From a virus, in the IMG/VR virus record IMGVR_UViG_3300027976_000024: 10,833 nt of DNA; one strand, given 5' to 3'. Below are positions 1 through 10,332 of this stretch, piece by piece; positions within the stretch are counted from its first letter, which is position 1; each line of letters starts with the position of its first letter. A program made the position numbers and the translations under genes. Below the pieces are notes generated by a model. It saw only the letters and a program-made list of their open reading frames with translations, was not told the origin of the DNA and searched no databases.

Positions 1-102
1 AATCCAAGACAAAGATCAAATCCAAGACAAAGATCAAATCCAAGACAAAGATCAAATCCAAATCCAAATCCAAATCCAAGACAAAGATCAAATCCAAGAT
101 CG
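1..102. repeat. Tandem repeat: 18-mer AATCCAAGACAAAGATCA x3 (1-54), AATCCA x3 (55-72), 18-mer again (73-90), degenerate unit 91-102
   Basis: Direct reading. Perfect 18-mer copies, with the 6-mer being the first 6 nt of the 18-mer. No stop codon in any of the three + frames across the repeat. Frame 1 encodes (NPRQRS)n, frame 2 (IQDKDQ)n, frame 3 (SKTKIK)n. Confidence 0.9.
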
Positions 103-198
103 TGGGAAAACGGGTTTCGAGATTATCTTGACAGAATTTTTATTGAAATTAAGAAGACCAAATATGATAAAGTGGATTGGAAGAATGAGGGCTTCTAA
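1..198 (+). CDS. 3' end of a 5'-truncated gene (frame 1) with a repeat-encoded (NPRQRS)n(NP)n stretch and C-terminal ...LDRIFIEIKKTKYDKVDWKNEGF*
   Basis: Open from window edge to TAA 196-198. The C-terminal 23 aa resemble the C-terminus of ORF 2599-2823 (LDEFVRLLQQKNQDKVNWKVEGF). The reading frame is uncertain because frame 2 is also open through the repeat. Confidence 0.35.
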   Translation, partial: NPRQRSNPRQRSNPRQRSNPNPNPNPRQRSNPRSWENGFRDYLDRIFIEIKKTKYDKVDWKNEGF

Positions 199-262
199 TG
201 CTGAACGGTCTTTTAAGACATTTGATCGCAATAAGGTCAATTGGAAGGATGAAGGATTTTGA
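164..262 (+). CDS. Candidate mini-ORF or frame-2 gene end, ...FKTFDRNKVNWKDEGF*. Possible starts are ATG 164 or ATG 185, or it continues from the window edge in frame 2.
   Basis: Frame 2 is open from position 2 to TGA 260-262. The tail NKVNWKDEGF has mostly synonymous differences against the other two tail copies. Its stop overlaps the next start (TGATG at 260-264), and an SD-like GAAGGA sits at 251-256 for the downstream gene. Confidence 0.25.
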   Translation: MIKWIGRMRASNAERSFKTFDRNKVNWKDEGF

Positions 263-468
263 TGACGCCATCTGAAACAATAGAATTTGCACAAAAAATA
301 GACTGTACAGAGATGTATGTTGTGTGTATCGTGCATGATTTAAATATTGTTGAAGAAGAAATTAAGAAGATTAAAGATATGGGGTATGCAGCATATTTGC
401 GTACAACTGCAATGGGAAACGAAATAGTTGTGAGTCAAAAAATTGTTTTCAATGAAAAATGTATATAG
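262..468 (+). CDS. Hypothetical protein, 68 aa (MTPSETIEFAQKIDCTEMYVVCIVHDLNIVEEEIKKIKDMGYAAYLRTTAMGNEIVVSQ...)
   Basis: ATG 262 preceded by GAAGGA at 251-256. TGATG overlap with the upstream ORF stop. No recognisable motif. Confidence 0.5.
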   Translation: MTPSETIEFAQKIDCTEMYVVCIVHDLNIVEEEIKKIKDMGYAAYLRTTAMGNEIVVSQKIVFNEKCI

Positions 469-475
469 GTTTATC

Positions 476-646
476 ATGAAAAATCGCATCATTCCTTCTT
501 TAGTGTTAGCGATGTTAGCTCTGAACCTCGCTTTTTTTGTTTATAAATCCCATACCAGAAAGAGGATAGATCCTCTTCCTGTTGTTGAACTCGATCTTAT
601 TGAAGAACATAAGAAGCCTGAAATCATCCCTGTTGAGAGTTTTTAA
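476..646 (+). CDS. Small single-pass membrane protein, 56 aa (MKNRIIPSLVLAMLALNLAFFVYKSH...)
   Basis: ATG 476 (alternatives ATG 452 or TTG 443 in the same frame). One hydrophobic helix followed by a charged tail. Weak RBS. Confidence 0.4.
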   Translation: MKNRIIPSLVLAMLALNLAFFVYKSHTRKRIDPLPVVELDLIEEHKKPEIIPVESF

Positions 647-725
647 TGAATTCATCCACTGAGCCAATAACAAAATTTGTGCTTGAAAATTTGGAAAAAT
701 TTCATATGCAAAACACATTGTAGGA

Positions 726-754
726 TTGACAAGTCTTAAAAAATATACGATACT
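726..754 (+). promoter_or_regulatory. Candidate sigma70-like promoter: TTGACA (726-731), 17-bp spacer, GATACT (749-754)
   Basis: Perfect -35 hexamer and a 4/6 -10 hexamer at canonical spacing, about 60 bp upstream of the 817 start, in a 170-bp AT-rich gap. Confidence 0.35.
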
Positions 755-816
755 CAAACATGCCGTGATCAATACTGACTTTGTCAGTTCAAGAACTATG
801 TCTAGTGGAGGGTCGA

Positions 817-1437
817 ATGTTTGAGATTTTTCTGTTTGGTACGTTTTGGTTTTGGATGCTCATAGCATTAGAAATTGTCGTGCTGTTTGTGTTCATTGAG
901 AATGAGAATGGGGCGGGTGCCACTGTTTCTATGCTGTTGTTTGGAGCAATGCTTCAGTGGTTTGGGAATGTTGACATAATTCAGTACGTCAAATCCTATC
1001 CTCTTTTTATTCTATCCTGTGCAGGAGCCTATTTCGCACTGGGTGCTGTGTGGGGTGTTATAAAATGGTGGATATTCTGCCGAGATCGACTTGAAGATTA
1101 CGAAGAAGCTCGTGATATCTTTCTAAACGAAAACAAAGTTCCAGCCGGTACAAAAGTCGTGCCAGTTGAATTAAGACTGGCTTGGAAAGCAATACTTGAA
1201 AAAAGTTTTAAGACTGCGAGTCTTGTTGATGTTCCACAGGTTCGGACACACAAAGCTAAGATCATACGATGGATGACCTTTTGGGTCATCTCAATTATCT
1301 GGAGCTTTATCAATGATTTTGTGAAGCGAATCTTCCGCACGATTTACCAAAAGATTTCTAACTTCCTGCAAGGTATTTCGGATAAAATGTTTAGATCGGT
1401 CAAAAACGATTTAGAAATTCCAAATGAAGAAGAATAA
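817..1437 (+). CDS. Multi-pass integral membrane protein (4 predicted TM helices), 206 aa, unknown function
   Basis: ATG 817 with GGAGGG SD at 807-812. The ORF track's TTG 781 start is less likely. Hydrophobic helices FLFGTFWFWMLIALEIVVLFVFI, VSMLLFGAMLQWF, LFILSCAGAYFALGAVWGVIKWWIF and IIRWMTFWVISIIWSFI. Charged C-terminus. Confidence 0.6.
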   Translation: MFEIFLFGTFWFWMLIALEIVVLFVFIENENGAGATVSMLLFGAMLQWFGNVDIIQYVKSYPLFILSCAGAYFALGAVWGVIKWWIFCRDRLEDYEEARDIFLNENKVPAGTKVVPVELRLAWKAILEKSFKTASLVDVPQVRTHKAKIIRWMTFWVISIIWSFINDFVKRIFRTIYQKISNFLQGISDKMFRSVKNDLEIPNEEE

Positions 1438-1593
1438 ACGACAAGCATGATGCACTTCTCAATGATTGAGAAGGTCGATGTCAGGACGACGACTCATCAA
1501 GATGATGAGTAAATCAAGGATGATCTCAAGGATGAGTGGCAGAATGAATCTGCCTTTGGCAAGGATGCCAATTTTTGTAAAACCTACTTAGGT

Positions 1594-1631
1594 GAAAAAA
1601 AGGGAGCGACAATTGTCGCTCCCTTTTTTTG
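1594..1631. terminator. Rho-independent terminator, bidirectional in form: A7, stem GGGAGCGACA / TGTCGCTCCC (1602-1611 / 1614-1623), T7 (1624-1630)
   Basis: Perfect 10-nt inverted repeat with GC-rich base, flanked by A-run and T-run. Confidence 0.8.
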
Positions 1632-1668
1632 TTTGTGCTTTTCGTACATACATGTGGAGGGTACAAAT

Positions 1669-1941
1669 ATGCCAATCAAAAATGAAGTACAAAGTATTAA
1701 AGAATCTTTTCAGTTCTATATTCAACATGAAGATGTGGTCAACATGATGAACGACGCTGATGTTGCATTAGACAACAGGAACGTCGATTCTGGGCAAGTC
1801 TTTGAAGTTTGGTTAGAAAAAGCCAATGGTTCAAAACTTTACTTGCAAAAATTGGGAGCAACTGATAAAATAATGTTTAAGTTCGTTAAGATGACGGAAA
1901 CATCTTCATGGGTTCCGTTCGCCAATATCGACGTATCATAG
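1669..1941 (+). CDS. Hypothetical protein, 90 aa (MPIKNEVQSIKESFQFYIQHEDVVNMMNDADVALDNRNVDSGQVFEVWLEKANGSKLYLQKLG...)
   Basis: ATG 1669 with GGAGGG at 1656-1661 (7-nt spacer), immediately after the terminator. The ORF track's upstream TTG 1633 lies inside the terminator stem region and is rejected. Confidence 0.6.
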   Translation: MPIKNEVQSIKESFQFYIQHEDVVNMMNDADVALDNRNVDSGQVFEVWLEKANGSKLYLQKLGATDKIMFKFVKMTETSSWVPFANIDVS

Positions 1942-1950
1942 GAGGTTATC

Positions 1951-2103
1951 ATGTGGTGTTTAGAAACAATCGTTCGTATGAATCAACAGTCTCAAGAAAG
2001 TTGGTTGAGATCTCATCTCAAGGAGACTCCAGATGCTCCACAAAAAGATGAGAAAAAGCAGAAAAATCAGAACTGCACGACTCATGGACGTGCGGTGAAA
2101 TAA
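1951..2103 (+). CDS. Small basic hypothetical protein, 50 aa (MWCLETIVRMNQQSQESWLRSHLKETPDAPQKDEKKQKNQNCTTHGRAVK)
   Basis: Not in the ORF track (too short). ATG 1951 with GGAGG at 1941-1945, which overlaps the upstream TAG stop. Fills an otherwise empty 210-bp gap. Confidence 0.45.
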   Translation: MWCLETIVRMNQQSQESWLRSHLKETPDAPQKDEKKQKNQNCTTHGRAVK

Positions 2104-2152
2104 TTGGCGAACCTTTTTCGCTTAATGTGGTCAATGTAGCAGGAGAAAAATT

Positions 2153-2599
2153 ATGGCATTTGAAGAATCATTACGACAGCGTATCTCAGGTTTTCCTTAT
2201 GGGTCGCCTGAAAGAAATCTTCTCAAATTGGTTTTGGGAGAGCTTCAACAGAAGGCAACTGTTACTGATGAAATCGCTCATTCCATCGTTAAAAAGATAA
2301 TTAACGGCAATGAAGAAGTCATGGCAATGGTTGATGGTGATGGCAAACTTTTATTGGCAGAAGACGATTCACGACGTGCTCAATACACTCGTGAAAATGA
2401 GCTTTTGGCAGAACTTTTGCCAAAGTATTTAACTGTTGCTCAGATTCGTCAGAGCCTCGAAATTTCTGGTATAGATTTGAAGTCCGATGAAAAGGACGGA
2501 AAAGCTATTGGAAAAGCAATAGAGCATTTTAATAAACTTGCTTTTCCGTTTGAAGGACAGACTGTTAAGGATGTTGTTGTGGAGATGAGGAACAGTTGA
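2153..2599 (+). CDS. YqeY/GatB-C-terminal-domain-like protein, 148 aa
   Basis: AGGAG SD at 2141-2145. Pattern matches the YqeY-like family (PF09424-type). Landmarks line up: NLLKLVLGELQQ..., TDEIAHSIVKKII, ENELLAELLPKYLTVAQIRQSL (the LP-x-Y-L block), KDGKAIGKAIEHFNK, VKDVVVEM. Family call is from memory of the domain consensus. Confidence 0.55.
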   Translation: MAFEESLRQRISGFPYGSPERNLLKLVLGELQQKATVTDEIAHSIVKKIINGNEEVMAMVDGDGKLLLAEDDSRRAQYTRENELLAELLPKYLTVAQIRQSLEISGIDLKSDEKDGKAIGKAIEHFNKLAFPFEGQTVKDVVVEMRNS

Positions 2600-2823
2600 T
2601 GGCTTGGGTTATTTTAACCACAGTCACGATATTCTATACGGGTAAGTTTCTTCTGCTTTCATATGATTTTTTGAAAGTAGAAATTCCAATCACAGTAATT
2701 GAAACGGTTTTGGATAGAGAACTCAGTTTAAACGATTTGACGCCTCAGCAACTTGATGAGTTTGTTCGCCTGTTGCAACAAAAAAACCAAGACAAAGTAA
2801 ATTGGAAAGTAGAAGGATTTTGA
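2599..2823 (+). CDS. Small protein, 74 aa, hydrophobic N-terminus, C-terminal tail ...LDEFVRLLQQKNQDKVNWKVEGF*
   Basis: ATG 2599 overlaps the upstream TGA (TGATG). GAGGAA SD at 2587-2592. Shares the C-terminal tail motif with the ORF ends at 198 and 262. Confidence 0.55.
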   Translation: MAWVILTTVTIFYTGKFLLLSYDFLKVEIPITVIETVLDRELSLNDLTPQQLDEFVRLLQQKNQDKVNWKVEGF

Positions 2824-2851
2824 TTATTGTGCTAAAGAAGGAGGAAGTTCG

Positions 2852-3463
2852 ATGAGCAGTGTATTTGCACGACGAAGATGTCTGGTACTCAATAAAACTT
2901 GGACTCCGGTTGGCACCGTATCTCTGCAAAGAGCAATCATTATGCTGTTTTCAGAATATGGAAACGGCGAGCCAAAGGCTCGTGTTATTGAGCCAGAAAG
3001 CTATCAGACATTTTCATGGAATGAATGGGCGTTACAACAGCCTGTGGAAACAGATGAAGTGATTCAAGGTGCCAATATGGCCTTTAAGGTGCCTGAGATT
3101 ATTCTGTTGACAAGTTATGATCGTCTTCCGCAACCGAAGATTCATTTTTCTCGACGTACTTTGTACAAGAGAGACAATATGCAGTGTCAATACTGTAAAT
3201 GTCGTCCTAAAAGTGAATTTTTGACAATTGACCACGTTAAACCAAAATCAAGGGGTGGAGGAACTACATGGGAAAACTGTGTACTTGCTTGCGTAGAGTG
3301 CAATGCTCGTAAAGCTAACAGAACTCCGTCTGAAGCACGTATGACGTTGCTGAATGAGCCGAAGAAACCACGGGTTCATTTGTTTCGGTACGACTCAATC
3401 AAGCCGGTCAAGTCGTGGGAAGCATTTCTTGGACTTTCCTATTGGTCAGTTAATGAAGAATAA
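2852..3463 (+). CDS. HNH endonuclease (McrA/YisB-like family), 203 aa
   Basis: AAGGAGG SD at 2838-2844. C-terminal HNH/zinc motif QCQYCKCRPKSEFLTIDHVKPKSRGGGTTWENCVLACVECNARKANR. N-terminal LVLNKTWTPVGTVSLQRAIIMLF is typical of this HNH subfamily. Confidence 0.8.
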   Translation: MSSVFARRRCLVLNKTWTPVGTVSLQRAIIMLFSEYGNGEPKARVIEPESYQTFSWNEWALQQPVETDEVIQGANMAFKVPEIILLTSYDRLPQPKIHFSRRTLYKRDNMQCQYCKCRPKSEFLTIDHVKPKSRGGGTTWENCVLACVECNARKANRTPSEARMTLLNEPKKPRVHLFRYDSIKPVKSWEAFLGLSYWSVNEE

Positions 3464-3467
3464 CAAA

Positions 3468-3499
3468 AATCCCTGTCAGATCTCTGACAGGGATTTTTT
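3468..3499. terminator. Bidirectional rho-independent terminator between convergent genes: stem AATCCCTGTCAGA / TCTGACAGGGATT (3468-3480 / 3483-3495) followed by T6, with an A-run upstream
   Basis: 13-nt near-perfect inverted repeat with T-tracts on both strands, sitting between the + gene ending at 3463 and the - gene ending at 3547. Confidence 0.8.
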
Positions 3500-3546
3500 C
3501 GTTAGATTCACACACTTCTAGGCGGCAATATTGTCAAACTGACTCA

Positions 3547-4239
3547 TTACACAGGTCTAAAACGGGGTTCTGGTTTTGGATTTGCAATTTCGTATTCTTT
3601 AATTTTTTCTTTCGCCCAGTCGTTCATTGATGCGATTTCTTCGGACATTTCTCCGTAAAACTTTGTAGTGTCACTTGTTGCATTGTATAGATCGAAAATA
3701 AGTTTCATCATCTTTGGATCGGAATAATCCTTGACAGTTGGTGCTAGTTCTTGAATTGATGCTTTTATTTCTTCAACTGTTTTAATTGCACTTTTTCTGC
3801 TTATTGCAGTAATTGCTTCAACATCTTCTGGACCCGTTGTTTTGTTAGTTTGAATCATTTTGCCACCACGAGTTCTTTCGCCTTTTCTACTGGTTAATCC
3901 AAGTTTTTTTTCTGCAACGGACGCTGCAAGCTTTTCTGCGTATTTCATGTCATTTGCTGTGTCATAAACAGCAAGTTCTGGTCTTTTTTCTTTTCCTTGT
4001 TGCCAATCTCGATTTGAGAGTTCTCTATCTTTAGGAGCCCCCAGATCTATAATATTTTTATCATTTCTTCCCATCTGTCCATCTCTAGGTGTAGCTGGAG
4101 CATGTGGACTAATATTCCTGTTAGAATATTGTGATGGAGACCCTTGTGGACGCATTTCAAGCAAAACAGCTTCATTAAGCTTCGATTGTTGGATATGTTC
4201 GTAGAATTGGTAAAAACTGGTTGTTGGAAAGCTGGACAT
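3547..4239 (-). CDS. Hypothetical protein, 230 aa, largely low-complexity/disordered (S/P/R/K/E-rich) with a helical C-terminal part
   Basis: ATG (complement of 4237-4239) with AGGAG SD 5 nt upstream on the minus strand. No recognisable catalytic motif. Confidence 0.6.
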   Translation of the reverse strand: MSSFPTTSFYQFYEHIQQSKLNEAVLLEMRPQGSPSQYSNRNISPHAPATPRDGQMGRNDKNIIDLGAPKDRELSNRDWQQGKEKRPELAVYDTANDMKYAEKLAASVAEKKLGLTSRKGERTRGGKMIQTNKTTGPEDVEAITAISRKSAIKTVEEIKASIQELAPTVKDYSDPKMMKLIFDLYNATSDTTKFYGEMSEEIASMNDWAKEKIKEYEIANPKPEPRFRPV

Positions 4240-4310
4240 CGTAACTCCTGTCTAAAGATCTTTAAGTTATTTAGACTTGAAATCCAAAAATTGTACCCGG
4301 AAATTAGAAC

Positions 4311-4324
4311 TTTGAACTTTCAAA
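4311..4324. promoter_or_regulatory. Perfect palindrome TTTGAA-CT-TTCAAA in the divergent intergenic region, a candidate operator
   Basis: 6-2-6 inverted repeat located between the divergently transcribed genes 3547-4239 (-) and 4405-5040 (+). Confidence 0.3.
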
Positions 4325-4349
4325 TCTTGTAATTGAGGAGTCAACTGGT

Positions 4350-4378
4350 TTTTCAATGGCTCGCATAAATATTATCAT
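4350..4378 (+). promoter_or_regulatory. Candidate promoter for gene 4405: TTTTCA (4350-4355), 17-bp spacer, TATCAT (4373-4378)
   Basis: 5/6 match to the -10 consensus, weak -35, correct spacing, about 27 nt upstream of ATG 4405. Confidence 0.25.
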
Positions 4379-4404
4379 CATCAAATTTAATAAGGACTAA
4401 ATTC

Positions 4405-5040
4405 ATGAATGTAAATATCCCTGTAATTGAGGCTAAAGTTAGACTCGAATATATGAACCAAAATCTTCCTGAATTTGTAGGTAAGTTTGCTGAATGTCAA
4501 ATTTTTGGGATGGCCTCAATCCCAGGACAGACTCCATTATTTCATTTCCTGTGTGATGATGGCGGCGTTTATTGGAGAATGCCTATTCATGCTTTCTGTT
4601 GGAGAACCGACGCTACAACTCCACTTCTTGAAGATGTAGCTCTGTGGGACTCATTTTCCTATCACGCTTCAGTCTTCACTATTGATATGTTCAAGAACAA
4701 AAGAGTTTCCTATGTGGACCGATCGAAGCATGAACAACAAGGCTGTTATCTGTTTACAATCGATTGGTTTGGAGACAATGGAAAGTCCTATGGATTTTCC
4801 GAAGCACCTGGACAACATAAATGTGGGCACGTTCTGAAACTTGACAACGGTAATTTTGCAATCCAACCCAACAATCGATTGAAGATCTTCGATCCTAATT
4901 TCACAGTTGAAGACGTTTGTTATCCAAGGATGCTGGCGAGAACCTTATATTCATCAGAACAATCTGGGCGATGGCGAACTGCCAATGACGAAAAATATGA
5001 CTATGAGATCCACGATATTAACGGTCGATCCACTACATAA
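4405..5040 (+). CDS. Hypothetical protein, 211 aa (Cys/Trp/His-rich; ...FHFLCDDGGVYWRMPIHAFCW...HKCGHVLKLDNGNF...)
   Basis: ATG 4405 with TAAGGA SD 8 nt upstream. No family recognised. Confidence 0.6.
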   Translation: MNVNIPVIEAKVRLEYMNQNLPEFVGKFAECQIFGMASIPGQTPLFHFLCDDGGVYWRMPIHAFCWRTDATTPLLEDVALWDSFSYHASVFTIDMFKNKRVSYVDRSKHEQQGCYLFTIDWFGDNGKSYGFSEAPGQHKCGHVLKLDNGNFAIQPNNRLKIFDPNFTVEDVCYPRMLARTLYSSEQSGRWRTANDEKYDYEIHDINGRSTT

Positions 5041-5044
5041 AGAT

Positions 5045-5401
5045 ATGCGAAATTTCAAAATTTGGATTGAAGATTCAGTACCTTACAAACAGAAAGATAT
5101 GAGTTTTCTGGATTTTGCAAAAAAAAGACACGATGGAGCAGAGAAAATAAGCATAAATGCAAAGGAAAAAGCTGGCATAGCGATGCTTACATATCACCAC
5201 TTTAACGTGAAACTGCCACATTATAAGAATGCTGCCGATGGGAAATTTGACCTCAAGAAAGCAAACAATGAATACAAATCTGTATGTTCGGAACTTCATT
5301 CATATATGGAAAATATCGGCAAGGTTGATGAAGTTAAATTCCAAAAATTAGTAGGCGAGATAGAAGTTCTTGGCGAATTAATCATTAAAAGTTCAACTTG
5401 A
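5045..5401 (+). CDS. Hypothetical protein, 118 aa (MRNFKIWIEDSVPYKQKDMSFLDFAKKRHDGAEKISINAKEKAGIAMLTYHHFNV...)
   Basis: ATG 5045 lies 4 nt after the TAA of the upstream gene. The ORF-track version starting at 4907 overlaps the upstream gene by 134 nt in another frame and is rejected. Confidence 0.5.
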   Translation: MRNFKIWIEDSVPYKQKDMSFLDFAKKRHDGAEKISINAKEKAGIAMLTYHHFNVKLPHYKNAADGKFDLKKANNEYKSVCSELHSYMENIGKVDEVKFQKLVGEIEVLGELIIKSST

Positions 5402-5433
5402 TCCCCATTGTTATGCCATCGAGAAGTAGCACC

Positions 5434-5876
5434 TCAAAACTTTTTCCCTGCTAATTGACAGCACATCTGATCATAAGACCACAATCCAGCAGCCGGTACG
5501 TCCTTGTGCCACAACAACTGATAGTCGTGAGTACCTTTGTACTGTCCAATCAATCCGCTAAAGTGGGCCTCACCACAGTTCTTATACAAGTTCTCAAAGA
5601 ATGATTTGTCTGTGTCTTTTGCCCAAGGCTTGCCTTCTACCTGCTTTGTATTGTCCTTGAACCATGCGCCATGCTCTTTGCAACAAGATAATCTCCACGC
5701 AACTTGAGTAGCATCAACATTGTTGACTGGATTGATGCTTCCACTGTGGATATTGAATTTTCCAGTTACGTTGTTGACATTCTCACTTTTGTAGAAAAAT
5801 GGGTTGTAAAGATGAATATGGCTATAACAATATAAAGCTTTTGGGTTATTGTTTTTACGGGCGTGGTTTTAATCAT
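5434..5876 (-). pseudogene. Frameshift-interrupted gene: ATG/TM mini-ORF (5876..5766, MIKTTPVKTITQKLYIVIAIFIFTTHF...) plus a -1-frame 144-codon start-less ORF (5868..5434, Cys-rich). One extra base in the A5/T5 run at 5795-5799 would fuse them into a roughly 170-aa type-II membrane-anchored protein.
   Basis: Manual translation. The long ORF has no ATG/GTG/TTG for about 96 codons. The upstream ATG ORF is in the other frame and ends within the overlap. The junction is the homopolymer CATTTTTCTAC (minus strand). It lies 28 nt downstream of the GT32-like gene stop, with a weak AAGAG SD. Confidence 0.45.
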
Positions 5877-5904
5877 GTTATTATTTACTCTTTGTGGAAA
5901 CTTC

Positions 5905-6885
5905 TCAAATCAACCATTGAACAGGTGATTTTATTATGAAATTGAATGTGCCGTCATCGCATTTTGCATTATTTATTTTATCAATATCAAACAAAGACAT
6001 TTGTTGTGATAAACATGTTTCCAGTTCTGATTCTGTGAATATCAATTTAAGATCTTTTTCTGTAAGAACTTTTGTTATGTTGTCATAGAATTCTTTGAAC
6101 AGTAGACAAGCCAATCCTCTTGAGTGATCTCTTTCTGTAATCCTCTTGGCTGTTGGGTTTTTGATCATCATGCCGTTGCAGTGCAGCATCTTCAATTGAT
6201 CTGGGTTGAGATTATGGATTTTTCTGAGAACTCCATGTTCGAGATCAGGTATGATCTCAAACATATGACTCATTCCTGTTTCATTCATATATCTCAGTAT
6301 TGTCTCGTCCCAAATATACGGCCAAGAATTGTAATTTGTTGATTCTTTGATGATGTCACAGAATTTTTGATTTCTTAATGCAGTGATGGAATAAGAATCA
6401 AACACACTGAACATTTCTTGAACGACTGGAGATTGGTGGTTGTAATAGAAAAAACCACTGTTGAATCCATCAAAACAAAATTTTTCGGAATTGCATTCAA
6501 GTGGCAGTGGATTCTTTAACCAAAAAACATCTGAGTCGCAGTAAATGATTGTCTCATGTGACAAATCGGGTTTTCGAATGTCAAACAATCTCGATAAAAG
6601 TTGGTATCCGACTATGTGTGAATAGTGTTCTTCTAAATGAAAGTTCGTCGGCACAACATCAAATTTTAGTGTTTTTTGAAAGTGCATCCAATCTGAGTTT
6701 GTCCAAGGATCTGTCGATTTATCATAATGTGGAGGATAGTTAGAAATGTTTAACACTTTGATTGGGATGTTAGGATTGACCGATCTGAGTGTTGCTATAG
6801 ACAATAATATTGGGTGAGACATATTTGAATAGGCGGGCTGTTCATTTGGACCAGCCCACCAGTGATAAACAACAGTTGGCATCAT
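5905..6885 (-). CDS. GT-A glycosyltransferase, GT32/Och1-like (DXD sugar-binding region; Gly_transf_sug-type), 326 aa
   Basis: N-terminal VVYHWWAGP, which fits the IHxxWxG pattern. SVNPNIP. DXD block ETIIYCDSDVFWLKNP preceded by HIVGYQLLSRLF. ATG overlaps the upstream stop (ATGA at 6882-6885) and GAGGAAA SD. Confidence 0.6.
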   Translation of the reverse strand: MMPTVVYHWWAGPNEQPAYSNMSHPILLSIATLRSVNPNIPIKVLNISNYPPHYDKSTDPWTNSDWMHFQKTLKFDVVPTNFHLEEHYSHIVGYQLLSRLFDIRKPDLSHETIIYCDSDVFWLKNPLPLECNSEKFCFDGFNSGFFYYNHQSPVVQEMFSVFDSYSITALRNQKFCDIIKESTNYNSWPYIWDETILRYMNETGMSHMFEIIPDLEHGVLRKIHNLNPDQLKMLHCNGMMIKNPTAKRITERDHSRGLACLLFKEFYDNITKVLTEKDLKLIFTESELETCLSQQMSLFDIDKINNAKCDDGTFNFIIKSPVQWLI

Positions 6886-7643
6886 AGTATTTCCTCATTT
6901 CTGTATTTCAGCATATCTTGTCTTAAAATTTGCGGCAATGGTTTGTTCCATTTTTTACAGAGTCTCAATCCATTTTCTATAAATAGTTTTTTTTGATCTT
7001 TTACACCATAAGTGAGAGGCGGATGCCACAGGTGAATTTCTGTTTCTTCTCTGTAAATTGATTTAATTCCATACTTCTCCATTGTGAATGTCATATCTGT
7101 ATCTTCCCATCCATAACCAACATATAATTCGTCCATGCCTCCAGCGTTAATGAAATCAGATTTCATTAACGCTATGTTACCTGACCAAGCATTTTTTGTC
7201 CCAAGTTCATTTGTTGTGCTACGATTGTCCCAAAAAAAATCAATATCTCCGTCAATTATTTTTGAGTCGCTGTATTCAGATTTTAGTTTTTTTGTAGGAC
7301 TTGTTGTAATTTGTATGCCAAATTTAAGTTGGTTCATTACAGAATTAAAGTATTCGGTTGGAAGTATTCTATCGCTATCCAAAATGAAGATTTTTTCATA
7401 TTTTGCTTTTGTGATTCCAAAATTTGTAATACAGCAAATGCTCATCTCTTCAAATCCAAAATTAAAATTCAAATGGGACTTCCAATGTTTTGTTGGTAAA
7501 GGATCTGTTAATTTATTTTGACACAGAGTGATAAGTTCGGAGTTTTCAATGACATCTTTGTGCCACAGATCCATGAACCTTAACATTTGCTTAAGATTGT
7601 CTAATCTTTCTGTGTGAAATTTAATGATAAATGAAGCTGACAT
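6882..7643 (-). CDS. GT-A glycosyltransferase, beta-1,4-galactosyltransferase-like (GT7/GT2 Glyco_transf_7C-type), about 253 aa
   Basis: The beta4GalT-like order SFIIKFHTERLDNL...ELITLCQ...FNFGFEE...KIFILDSDRILP, plus the C-terminal YVGYGWEDTDM (WGxEDxD) motif. The true start is taken as ATG 7643 (MSASFIIKF...) rather than the track's TTG 7706. Confidence 0.55.
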   Translation of the reverse strand: MSASFIIKFHTERLDNLKQMLRFMDLWHKDVIENSELITLCQNKLTDPLPTKHWKSHLNFNFGFEEMSICCITNFGITKAKYEKIFILDSDRILPTEYFNSVMNQLKFGIQITTSPTKKLKSEYSDSKIIDGDIDFFWDNRSTTNELGTKNAWSGNIALMKSDFINAGGMDELYVGYGWEDTDMTFTMEKYGIKSIYREETEIHLWHPPLTYGVKDQKKLFIENGLRLCKKWNKPLPQILRQDMLKYRNEEIL

Positions 7644-7656
7644 TCTATAATTTAGT

Positions 7657-8430
7657 ATGAGAAAAAATCTTTTGATAGCCTGTGTGGGTCCGACATCTTT
7701 ACACAAGCAGTGGATTTGTGGCGACAGAGATTTCGATCTGATGATAGTTCATTATGGCGATGGCGATTCTTATGTCGGTGATGGGGAATATTACATTAAA
7801 GCCAAAGGAACTAAGTTTAACATAATAGGCGATATCTCTCATAAAATTCCTAAAGAATATGAATATATTTTCATTCCTGATGATGATCTTGCTATGTCTT
7901 GTCAAAGTATAAACAGATTGTTTGGGATTGCCAGACAATACGATTTGAAGATTTGTCAGCCATCATTGGTTGGATACTATTCTATTCCTCTGAATTTGCA
8001 TAGTCCCGGATCTATTTTGAGATATACAGATTATGTTGAGATCATTTGTCCTTGCTTTGAGAGGTCTACATTTGAGTCATGCCGATCTACGTTCAATCAC
8101 AACAGTAGTTGCTGGGGCATTGATTTATTGTGGGGCGTGGTTTTGGATCATCCAAAAGACGCTATAGCTGTTATTGATGATGTAATTGCCATTCACACGA
8201 GACCATGTTATCAGGGCGACAATTACTCGAATAACAACATAGACAGCCCACAACTTGATCTAAAGAAGATAATAGAAGAAAATGGTTTGTCTTATCGAAG
8301 AACAGTATACAAAACTGTGGAAAAAGAAGAAGATTACAGTAAGCCATCAGAAACTAGAATTTACCCAAACGTTGATTTAATGTTGCAGTTTTGTAATCAA
8401 CTTGGAAGAAAAAGGTTTGTCGATATTTAA
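7657..8430 (+). CDS. DUF707-like protein (PF05212-type, a plant-associated GT-A-like family), 257 aa
   Basis: DFDLMIVHYGDGD, YEYIFIPDDDLAMS and KICQPSL match my memory of the conserved blocks of DUF707 (DFDLLLFHYDG / YEYIFLWDEDLGV / ISQPAL). The start is only 13 bp from the divergent GT start at 7643. Confidence 0.5.
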   Translation: MRKNLLIACVGPTSLHKQWICGDRDFDLMIVHYGDGDSYVGDGEYYIKAKGTKFNIIGDISHKIPKEYEYIFIPDDDLAMSCQSINRLFGIARQYDLKICQPSLVGYYSIPLNLHSPGSILRYTDYVEIICPCFERSTFESCRSTFNHNSSCWGIDLLWGVVLDHPKDAIAVIDDVIAIHTRPCYQGDNYSNNNIDSPQLDLKKIIEENGLSYRRTVYKTVEKEEDYSKPSETRIYPNVDLMLQFCNQLGRKRFVDI

Positions 8431-8466
8431 ATTCCAGTATCTGGCAAAGTTCCTAACATTGAATCA

Positions 8467-8925
8467 TTAAATTCCTGCTCTTTCAATTTGCTCCTTAATC
8501 TCTCTCAACAAAACTGAAGATTTGTCTGGCTGTACAATTGTTTCTTTTAAAGATCCATAATGAATTTCTAAACATTCTATCAATAGTGTTTTTATTTTAT
8601 TTTTGTCTGGTCCTGAAGGCAAAGAACTTTTGGCATATAATTCTTCTAGTTGTTTTTCTTTATTTTGTGCCCATTCTTTAATTTGGCGGACATCCCATTC
8701 TCCTCTACGGATGCTTTTTAATTGTTCTTTGTGTCTTCTTATATCTAAATCGCATTCCGCTAAGATCTGTTCAGCTTCTAGCAATAATCTAACAACGTGC
8801 ATTGCATATTTTGTGTCATAAGAATTAATTTTAACATTCTCTGCTCTTTTTGATTCATCTATAGCGTTTTTGTAAAGATGATAATAGTGTTCTAATTCTT
8901 TATCGTTCAATTCATTTAATTCCAT
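8467..8925 (-). CDS. Hypothetical alpha-helical protein, 152 aa (…KYAMHVVRLLLEAEQILAECDLDIRRHKEQLKSIRRGEWDVRQIKEWAQNKEKQLEELY…)
   Basis: ATG 8925 overlaps the upstream HEG end by 14 nt. Charged helical composition, and no HEPN Rx4-6H motif found. Confidence 0.5.
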   Translation of the reverse strand: MELNELNDKELEHYYHLYKNAIDESKRAENVKINSYDTKYAMHVVRLLLEAEQILAECDLDIRRHKEQLKSIRRGEWDVRQIKEWAQNKEKQLEELYAKSSLPSGPDKNKIKTLLIECLEIHYGSLKETIVQPDKSSVLLREIKEQIERAGI

Positions 8926-9682
8926 TGTTTTCTACAACCTTTTTGCAAAATTCCACAAATTCATCTGTTGTTAAATTTCTTTTCATTAAATTTATTGTTT
9001 TATGAACCCATTGTAAGTTTTCTTTTACATAACCTAAAGAACTGTTTATTCTGTCTAAAGAAGCTGTTTGTATTTTTGATTGATTAGAAAATGTTAGTTT
9101 AATTCCAGACAATGCACAAGTTCTGTTTTGTTCTAAAAATAAATTCCAACAATATTTTATATCAACTTCAACATTTATATTTCTTGTTTTTGCGTTAGCC
9201 TTTAATCTGGCCCAAAATTGTCCAGATATTTCTTCATATGCAGTTCTTTTTAATTTATCGCCAAATAATTTTCTGTATTTTTTATCTCTATTTTCCCAAA
9301 TGTTTTTACATCTAATTTTATGTTGAAGCAACTTGCTTTGATCTGCAATTGATTTTTTGAAAGGATTGTTATCTCCAGATACGTTTGCATGATTTATTGA
9401 CATTTTTTTACGAGTGTCACTGTTGTGTCTTCTGCCAAAAAAAGGATTATTTTCTCCTGTGAATTTTTTTGACATTAAATTTTTTTGTTGTTCAGAGCAA
9501 GGAGTTCCTTTAGGGCGACCAGATTTTTTATCACTTCTTTTATAGAATCCTTTCGGAATGTGAATTTCGTATTTTTTTAAATAATTAACTATTGTAGTTT
9601 TAGAACAATTGAAAATTTTTTTTAACGATTCACACGATTTATTATCACTAATATGGTCCAACAATTCTTCTTTGTATATCAT
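8912..9682 (-). CDS. Homing-endonuclease-like protein: N-terminal HTH, NUMOD3-like repeats, C-terminal HNH-variant nuclease motif; 256 aa
   Basis: NUMOD3-like GENNPFFGRRHNSDTRKKMS and GDNNPFKKS. C-terminal CALSGIKLTF...ASLDRINSSLGYVKENLQWVHKTINLMKRNLTTDEFVEFCKKV, the D-R-I...N-L-Q-W-V...N pattern of phage free-standing HNH endonucleases. AGGA SD. Very AT-rich. Confidence 0.6.
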   Translation of the reverse strand: MIYKEELLDHISDNKSCESLKKIFNCSKTTIVNYLKKYEIHIPKGFYKRSDKKSGRPKGTPCSEQQKNLMSKKFTGENNPFFGRRHNSDTRKKMSINHANVSGDNNPFKKSIADQSKLLQHKIRCKNIWENRDKKYRKLFGDKLKRTAYEEISGQFWARLKANAKTRNINVEVDIKYCWNLFLEQNRTCALSGIKLTFSNQSKIQTASLDRINSSLGYVKENLQWVHKTINLMKRNLTTDEFVEFCKKVVENNGIK

Positions 9683-9708
9683 TGATTATCCTGACATAAA
9701 TAAAATGG

Positions 9709-10332
9709 TTATGCTTTATTTATGATCAGACCTCTGTTTTTTATTTCTTGTTCTAATTGTTTGAATGATATTTTGTGAGAAATTCCTTTTTCTTGTTCGA
9801 AATTCTTTAGTTTTTGTAATCCTTTAGGTGATTTATTTTCAAGTTTTGCTAATTGCGAATATGCGTATCCTTTAAATTTTGCAAAACATCCTTTGTGCAA
9901 AAACAATTTACGATTTTCTCTTAAAAGATTTCCAGCCTGAGTAATTATTAAAATATGTTCATGAGATGTGAATAACGTGTCTACACATGACGGATTATTT
10001 TCCAACAGTAATTTAAAGAATTTTATGATGTTATAAACACTTACATCATATTCTCTTCCTTTACCACCAAGAGCATCTTTGTCAAAAATATGATGACATT
10101 GAAATTGTTGAAAACAATCAATGTCATCGAATCCATAAATTTTACCATTTAGGTGTGGAAAAATTTCTATTTTTGGCGGTATGCAAACACCGTAGAGATC
10201 AATATCAGAATCTGCTGTTGTGTCTGCGGCCCCATAAGAGACAGATCCTGTAATTGTTAAATAAATTGTATTTTGCACCACCCATGGTGGCGGAGAAATC
10301 AGTTTTTTGTCTTGTAAATCTTTGAGAATCAT
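9709..10332 (-). CDS. Pol-beta-superfamily nucleotidyltransferase, PF10127 (RlaP)-like, 207 aa
   Basis: ITGSVSYGAADTTADSDIDLYGVCIPP is the hG[GS]-x(9-13)-D-h-[DE] NTase signature with the GV...P continuation seen in the PF10127 family. AAGGAAGGG SD upstream of ATG 10332. Confidence 0.55.
   Translation of the reverse strand: MILKDLQDKKLISPPPWVVQNTIYLTITGSVSYGAADTTADSDIDLYGVCIPPKIEIFPHLNGKIYGFDDIDCFQQFQCHHIFDKDALGGKGREYDVSVYNIIKFFKLLLENNPSCVDTLFTSHEHILIITQAGNLLRENRKLFLHKGCFAKFKGYAYSQLAKLENKSPKGLQKLKNFEQEKGISHKISFKQLEQEIKNRGLIINKA

Follow-up and report, generated by a model that had tools for sequence, protein, structure and literature searches.

Three copies of a C-terminal peptide in the window

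The stretch of DNA analysed here (hereafter the window) comprises 10,833 nucleotides of the virus record IMGVR_UViG_3300027976_000024 of IMG/VR, with a guanine-cytosine (GC) content of 36%, and carries three copies of a short peptide tail that ends in W-K-x-E-G-F directly before a stop codon. It is the last 10.8 kb of the JGI contig Ga0335396_10005858, and the same phage is found on a 96-kb ENA contig and in other assemblies. Megablast of the window DNA against 50,697 phage records gave no match, and most of the window genes have no match in Pfam and PHROG scans. The tails and their surroundings are as follows, where ORF stands for open reading frame:

1-198, + strand: 3' part of ORF1, cut by the window start; 156 residues in the full contig (L007 1379-1849)
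1-99, + strand: 18-nt tandem repeat (period 18, 5.5 copies) encoding the (NPRQRS)n linker in ORF1, upstream of the tail
166-198, + strand: tail copy 1, DKVDWKNEGF then TAA, frame 1, end of ORF1
185-262, + strand: relic, reduced to a 25-residue ATG ORF whose frame differs from that of the ancestral TAATG start (198)
196-200: TAATG at the end of copy 1, start site of the next gene in relatives
230-262, + strand: tail copy 2, NKVNWKDEGF then TGA, frame 2
260-264: TGATG leading to the start of the 68-residue gene
262-468, + strand: 68-residue gene, translationally coupled to the relic tail; a conserved gene of 72-100 residues in relatives
476-646: 56-residue ORF, N-terminal stub (membrane helix plus acidic linker) of the HExxH membrane protein of relatives (326-334 residues)
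2599-2823, + strand: ORF3, 74 residues, with a hydrophobic N-terminal helix, a variable-length linker, an 'LNDLTxEQ' helix and the tail
2791-2823, + strand: tail copy 3, DKVNWKVEGF then TGA, frame 1, end of ORF3
2838-2844: AAGGAGG, a Shine-Dalgarno (SD) sequence upstream of the ATG at 2852

The coordinates and letters that the original prediction gave for the three tails are exact, and the junctions it described (TGATG at the end of copy 2 and an SD sequence 15 nt past 2823) are found as stated. The back-translated pattern of K-V-[DN]-W-K-x-E-G-F-stop, AARGTNRAYTGGAARNNNGARGGNTTYTRA, has three matches in the window versus none in 200 dinucleotide-preserving shuffles. Between copies 1 and 3 there are six synonymous changes at third positions (GAT/GAC, GTG/GTA, AAG/AAA, GAG/GAA, GGC/GGA and TTC/TTT), one D/N replacement and a change in the free x codon. 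Leaving aside this codon and the stop, synonymous third positions account for six of seven differences. ORF1 shows a conserved N-terminal alpha/beta domain followed by a basic low-complexity linker, a short helix and the tail.

The claim that the tail ends three ORFs stands for copies 1 and 3, which close conserved genes, but copy 2 belongs to a gene remnant and not to a normal gene. It is carried only by the 25-residue ATG ORF at 185-262 or by a 44-residue ORF that starts with TTG. Judging from the alignment with relatives, copy 2 is the remnant of an N-terminally membrane-anchored tail protein of 81-90 residues whose body was deleted, and it is so called because the relatives hold the gene of this membrane protein at the same place. 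Window positions 199-229 (31 nt) replace around 220 nt of the 81-residue gene in L236, L157 and L281, and both flanks align, including TGATGACGCCATCTGAAACAAT; intact orthologues of 81-90 residues are present in L281, L282 and L283. The relic still supplies an SD sequence (GAAGGA...TGATG) and the overlapping start for the gene at 262-468. In the syntenic relatives (L157, L236, L281, L282 and L283), the gene order begins with ORF1 and the 81-90-residue membrane protein, both ending in the tail, and the 72-100-residue gene, and continues with a Smr-like gene, the 326-334-residue HExxH membrane protein and a 205-residue membrane protein. The window phage has lost the HExxH gene, the Smr-like gene and the 81-residue tail gene.

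Conservation and distribution of the tail

The further copies that the original prediction proposed to look for were sought by scans of other sequences with the back-translated pattern RAYTGGAARNNNGARGGNTTYTRA, and the tail was found at the end of more than 115 non-redundant ORFs. The resulting set of carriers consists of at least 115 clusters at 60% identity after dereplication, which group into at least 86 homology families similar in nothing else, as expected from the proposal that the tail is common to otherwise unrelated small proteins. In IMG/VR viral contigs, matches were found in 35 stretches; of 32 non-redundant ones, 31 close an open frame that is 45 codons or longer (median 87 codons). 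Metagenome contigs gave at least 119 stretches, with 74 of 123 ending such a frame among the matches listed (median 70). In 596 Gb of genomes, 111 stretches were found and only 20 of 110 matches end an open frame of this length, with a median of 16 codons. The genome figure is the chance background, and the viral figure is far above it.

Across 115 tails the consensus is E-K-V-[N/D]-W-[K/Q]-x-E-G-F, and the tail spans 8-10 residues. The tail ends in E-G-F in 113 of the 115 clusters and in D-G-F in the other two. Positions -8 (V in 44%), -9 (K) and -10 (E), which lie outside the broad search pattern, are also conserved. Beyond -10 the information content across the 115 tails is low, and each orthologous family shows its own upstream helix at a variable distance; the shared module of about 23 residues suggested for the window copies is thus not general. 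The codons used for the conserved residues are diverse: four each for V and G, AAA (42) and AAG (40) for K, GAA (77) and GAG (36) for E, and TTT (64) and TTC (51) for F, and all three stop codons (TGA, TAA and TAG) follow tails. The mean z-score of the minimum free energy over 114 tail regions is -0.10, and an Rfam search of the window gave no match. Because all synonymous codons occur and there is no RNA structure signal, selection acts on the tail peptide, as the original prediction had proposed against a DNA-level repeat.

The tail is strictly C-terminal. Variants of W-x-x-E-G-F beyond the reach of the search pattern, with Q, R, L, I, E, M and others at -5, were found 39 times before a stop codon versus three times internally in 771,000 residues of ORFs. 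Recoding at the tail was considered and rejected. An RF2-type programmed +1 frameshift site has a slippery codon plus UGA after an SD sequence, and its ORF goes on in the +1 frame. No such site was recognised at the tail ends, where TTC TAA, TTT TAA and TAG are common endings, and the downstream ORFs encode separate conserved proteins, with their own ATG overlapping the stop (TRATG) and a different frame relation. The codon variety is likewise at odds with frameshift or bypass reading.

Ascertainment bias is reduced by the retrieval of relatives through whole proteins or through the HNH-family gene next to ORF3, and by the column conservation of the ORF3 family. A whole-protein search with ORF1 gave a family (P0002-P0008, 42-55% identity) with the tail in 7/7 members, two of them with R at -5. 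The ORF3 family has eight members with 23-51% identity, and apart from M1 and I5 no column is invariant except six in the tail (V, W, K, E, G and F). In these two families, collected not by the tail alone and spanning 23-55% identity, the tail columns are nearly the sole invariants outside the conserved N-terminal domain. Among the loci fetched through the HNH gene, the three close relatives all show an ORF with a membrane helix and the tail directly upstream, including a new tail variant (INWGKEGF), and no upstream tail ORF was found in five distant relatives. Sister clades such as L275-L279 and LR756511.1 have no tails.

Carriers of the tail belong to large uncultured phages and to elements integrated in Planctomycetota chromosomes. 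The tail-bearing contigs have a GC content of 33-51% and reach lengths of 239, 282 and 459 kb; IMGVR_UViG_3300015263_000944 (239 kb) and JGI Ga0556162_0000079 (282 kb) are examples of complete genomes with the tail. Carrier proteins have a median length of 100 residues and the longest credible one has 322; none is polymerase-sized. Their bodies include N-terminal membrane-helix proteins, zinc ribbons, small alpha/beta domains, capsid-protein fragments and ORFans. Tagged genes are often clustered: the window clade has three per 20 kb, L031 a run of five and L203 a run of 21. The L203 array (1-10319; MDTG01031237.1, a 120-kb contig with a GC content of 33%) contains 21 consecutive ORFs on the same strand, of around 100-220 residues and mostly with overlapping stop and start codons, which all end in W-x-x-E-G-F. 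Their bodies without the tail are similar in three pairs only, and position -5 is occupied by Q, E, I or V, not by K.

The linkers before the tails vary in length and some show low-complexity tandem repeats, as NPRQRS in the window and NSRC in L016; the NSRC codon repeat (four units) likewise precedes the tail in L016 and L033. The copy number of the NPRQRS repeat (L004 and L005, around 7480-7560) varies between assemblies of the same phage, and the JGI contigs have more units than the ENA contig. At a strict threshold, 14 of the 86 families have a strong membrane helix, and in L193 the tail directly follows a transmembrane segment and KKKRKRTKKK. On the membrane-anchored carriers the tail faces the cytoplasm, because a net positive charge follows most membrane helices.

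Some small tail ORFs consist of little beyond a piece of around 45 residues of the T4 major capsid protein and the tail (L015 6300-7054, L036 5620-6272, L035 824-1021, L031 7194-7552, L222 and L251). The pieces correspond to positions 1-48 or 143-202 of PF07068, above the gathering threshold, and the ORFs are kept between genes for an aldehyde dehydrogenase and a UDP-glucose dehydrogenase in around 12 related contigs. A split capsid gene was considered and rejected, given that these tail ORFs with a Gp23 motif hold fragments of around 45 residues only and are followed by unrelated genes.

Five of the genome matches with long ORFs (L094, L105, L109, L138 and L139) belong to Planctomycetota, two of them in chromosome-scale sequences, and a Planctomycetota host is likely for at least part of the phage group. 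In the Thermoguttaceae chromosome OY762224.2 (L139 158-2004), a 108-residue tail ORF adjoins a phage-type integrase (PF00589) and a tRNA-Arg(CCG), and a host amylase-like gene comes next; this is where an element integrated in the planctomycete chromosome ends. Outside the phage group, a family of around 210 residues in Streptococcus-type contigs (L050, L234 and L257) ends in RDWK[NE]EGF, and a 131-residue Gemmatimonadota protein (L088 and L097) ends in GDWKPEGF. These tails may reflect convergence, chance or the same signal.

Possible function of the tail

The tail itself has not been described before, although terminal targeting or docking peptides are already known as a kind. No paper containing the tail strings was found in the literature, and no model in Pfam, PHROGs and NCBIfam scans of the carriers covers the tail, which agrees with the view of the original prediction that it resembles no described motif. 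With moderate confidence, we favour the reading that the tail would be a modular C-terminal short linear motif that docks on one common cytoplasmic receptor by its free carboxyl end. Flexible linkers would join it to many small accessory proteins, unrelated to one another, in a clade of large uncultured phages and in elements integrated in Planctomycetota. Its anchors would be Trp (-6), Glu (-3) and the terminal Phe, whose carboxylate is free, and the exposed end would insert in one conserved pocket of a single cytoplasmic receptor, which would bring all tagged proteins to the same partner or place. We infer the existence of this single receptor, either a host hub or a phage protein, and the effect could be recruitment, delivery or turnover. 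Two features of generic C-terminal short linear motifs are found in the tail, namely a short peptide on unrelated proteins (86 homology families) and a position at the extreme C-terminus (39 versus 3). The roles suggested in the original prediction, as a targeting signal, a partner-binding peptide or a degron, would agree with the anatomy of the carriers.

Several known C-terminal peptides share part of these features. Single-stranded DNA-binding protein (SSB), with its C-terminal D-D-D-I-P-F, and gp2.5 and gp4 of T7, with their acidic F-terminated tails, use such ends as hub-docking tips; the SSB tip combines an acidic run with [IL]-P-F-COOH on an OB-fold protein. The tail resembles them in its invariant C-terminal Phe, in a free carboxylate expected to matter, in its place at the end of a probably disordered linker and in its cytoplasmic location. 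However, these tips are acidic, carry Pro at -2 and connect one protein with many partners, whereas the tail shows W-K-x-E-G-F and would connect many proteins with presumably one partner; only the terminal F is shared, -5/-4 are basic or polar, -2 is Gly and the carriers are not SSBs. Class III PDZ ligands follow the pattern [D/E]-x-hydrophobic-COOH, PDZ-type readers require a free C-terminus and bacterial PDZ proteins are mostly periplasmic. The E-G-F-COOH end of the tail fits this pattern; however, neither PDZ nor TPR carboxylate-clamp proteins are linked to the tail loci, and the tail is cytoplasmic. The tail also does not show the Q/L pattern of the beta-clamp or T4 clamp-binding motif (Q-L-[SD]-L-F-like), a hydrophobic motif of proteins for replication or transcription.

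Other results weigh against a docking tag with one receptor. The search for a receptor by co-occurrence returned syntenic neighbours only, and no PDZ or TPR-type reader universally linked to the loci was found. Two candidate receptors were rejected: a TPR-GT9-like protein and the HExxH membrane protein are both restricted to some clades, and in the window phage the HExxH gene is degraded although the tails persist. Most carriers were gathered via the tail itself, so the family counts are uninformative on tail-less relatives. The AlphaFold2 evidence for an exposed tail is weak: in the model of the ORF1 family (seven sequences), the N-terminal domain reaches a predicted local distance difference test (pLDDT) score of around 90 and the C-terminal 60 residues, including the tail, only 53-62; the model of ORF3 from a single sequence is uninformative, with a best pLDDT of 72 and five models that disagree. 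Furthermore, a nascent-peptide or termination role would equally yield conservation at the peptide level next to the stop codon. With Foldseek, no PDB structure matched the ORF1-family model at an E-value below 1. The PrfH-like release factor of the syntenic relatives, another candidate for a reader, was discarded because the window phage does not encode it.

More tentatively, the tail may be a postcode, that is, a C-terminal tag of 8-10 residues by which large phages of Planctomycetota-type hosts would send dozens of unrelated and rapidly evolving accessory proteins, in each genome, to a single receptor or compartment. The destination could be the inside of the virion, from which the proteins would be injected, or else a hub or membrane site of the host, and new effectors would arise by any ORF placed before an existing junction of tail plus start codon. 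If true, the postcode would be for viruses of prokaryotes what PTS1 or KDEL-type signals are elsewhere. One peptide would mark a whole functional class of ORFans of huge uncultured phages without PHROGs or Pfam match, whose members probably serve host takeover or anti-defence or are injected. That a single tag of 10 residues is common to at least 86 phage protein families with no other relation would surprise specialists. A short tag is experimentally tractable, and its receptor would reveal either a packaging or targeting route not known so far or the hub in the host on which these phages converge; possible uses are a portable tag for protein loading or recruitment and a metagenome marker for this phage group and its integrated relatives.

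A special case of such an address tag, which we consider unlikely, is that the tail targets small proteins to the virion, routing them into the prohead for packaging and injection. The capsid-targeting sequence (CTS) of the T4 internal proteins is a short terminal peptide that is the sole common part of diverse, fast-evolving small phage proteins, often in variable arrays (PMC3012670). The tail is also the only shared part of diverse small phage proteins, in phages with T4-type capsid homology (PF07068 fragments above the Pfam threshold), and arrays of fast-diverging tagged ORFs occur (21 in L203 and five in L031). However, the CTS is N-terminal and has an L/I-x-E site for the prohead protease, whereas the tail is C-terminal, has another sequence with K or Q instead of L or I at -5, lacks such a site and is also found on membrane proteins. 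Encapsulin cargo, loaded into HK97-fold shells, has C-terminal targeting peptides of around 10 residues on a flexible linker, which are transferable between cargo and read by one partner pocket (PMC7925596). The tail is likewise C-terminal, of around 10 residues, linker-borne and on unrelated proteins; however, it shows no sequence resemblance to these peptides, its carriers are far more numerous per genome (up to 21 in 10 kb), and no encapsulin shell gene was found among the called or annotated neighbours. The HK97 maturation protease has a C-terminal targeting tail comparable to the encapsulin peptides. The tail may work like the CTS and the encapsulin peptides although it lacks their defining features. 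Capsid targeting is further disfavoured by the 14 families with strongly hydrophobic membrane helices and a cytoplasmic tail, since integral membrane proteins are unlikely capsid cargo, by the tagged ORFs next to an integrase and a tRNA gene in the Thermoguttaceae chromosome, and by the location of the window copies in sigma-70-like promoter and terminator units among accessory genes, with no recognisable head module.

It is improbable that the tail is a C-terminal degron delivering its carriers to a cytoplasmic AAA+ protease (ClpXP, ClpAP, FtsH or Lon), for timed removal or for saturation of the protease. The ssrA tag and the MuA C-terminus are known C-terminal degrons, and the need for a free C-terminus, the exposure on a presumably flexible linker and the cytoplasmic location match them; membrane-anchored carriers would suit FtsH. 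On direct comparison, however, the E-G-F end is unlike both the non-polar L-A-A-COOH of ssrA and the basic ClpX C-motif of MuA. Moreover, no protease gene is linked to the loci, and there is no obvious reason for a single array to encode over 20 different proteins that are all meant to be destroyed.

A translation-level element is slightly less probable still. It supposes that the tail codons serve the next gene with an SD sequence and an overlapping start, that the nascent W-x-x-E-G-F modulates termination, or both. A secondary role at the DNA level is indeed often seen: the codons of E-G-F and the stop (GAR GGN TTY TRA TG) double as SD sequence and overlapping start of the next gene, with GAGG or AAGG placed 6 nt before a stop-overlapping ATG. 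This TRATG arrangement is found at 43 of the 115 tails, and in 18 others a start lies no more than 6 nt away. The part of the relic that survives, copy 2, is exactly the initiation region of the gene at 262-468, the conservation adjoins the stop codon, and a PrfH-like release factor, PTH2 and a Smr-like protein are encoded by the relatives. This role accounts in part for the persistence of tails at junctions, as in copy 2, and for a way in which new ORFs could acquire them. As an explanation of the tail it falls short, because W, F and [N/D] are invariant and 36 of the 115 tails have no start within 30 nt but still show E-G-F, W and [N/D]. An SD sequence needs GAGG only, which leaves unexplained the invariant Trp, Phe and [N/D] and the V at -8, with free third positions. 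In addition, copy 3 has a separate SD sequence 15 nt downstream, and the release-factor gene is absent from the window phage. Arrest peptides are normally found in dedicated leader ORFs, and would not be expected on 86 protein families.

Finally, a DNA-level repeat (recent duplicates, or junction sequence of recombination or a mobile element, with the peptide unselected) is rejected: the copies mark junctions between genes, and the gene that one of them belonged to has been deleted, but the window copies differ at most synonymous sites, the 115 tails use every synonymous codon with fixed amino acids, the peptide is common to phages of 33-51% GC, and the flanking DNA is unrelated between families.

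Remaining genes of the window and its relatives

The genes that flank ORF3 and the other features recognised in the window are the following:

726-754: near-consensus sigma-70-like promoter (TTGACA-17-GATACT), upstream of a 206-residue membrane-protein gene
1595-1630: strong intrinsic terminator
2153-2599, + strand: YqeY/GatB-like 148-residue gene, conserved next to ORF3 on its upstream side; stop (TGA) and ORF3 start (ATG) overlap in TGATG (2597-2601)
2852-3463, + strand: HNH-family 203-residue gene, conserved downstream neighbour of ORF3-type tail genes, with its own SD sequence at 2838-2844
3465-3498: strong intrinsic terminator, common to convergent genes

The promoter and the two terminators bound transcription units. 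The HNH-family gene is not a stray homing endonuclease but a conserved syntenic partner directly 3' of ORF3-type tail genes; it is found with 57-79% identity in L001, L024, L175, L209, L262, L270, L281 and L282, in phages of 35-51% GC. A tblastn search with this gene matched a 595-kb uncultured phage at 46% identity, and the 40 kb around that match show no tail.

The syntenic relatives encode several proteins of the translation-rescue type. The PrfH-like release factor has 200-236 residues, with PCRF and RF-1 domains and the GGQ motif present, and the PTH2 peptidyl-tRNA hydrolase and a Smr-like protein of 73 residues are also found; these genes lie at L281 16038-16640, L282 16106-16816, L283 208-588 and L281 10879-11100. 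The position of the release factor is occupied by other genes in the window phage. Radical SAM/SPASM and acyl-carrier genes are present in the same relatives. Within the window, the region 8912-10332 contains a NUMOD3/HNH-like gene and a RlaP nucleotidyltransferase gene, and a tRNA-Arg(TCT) of the window phage is located upstream of the window (L004 2027-2100).

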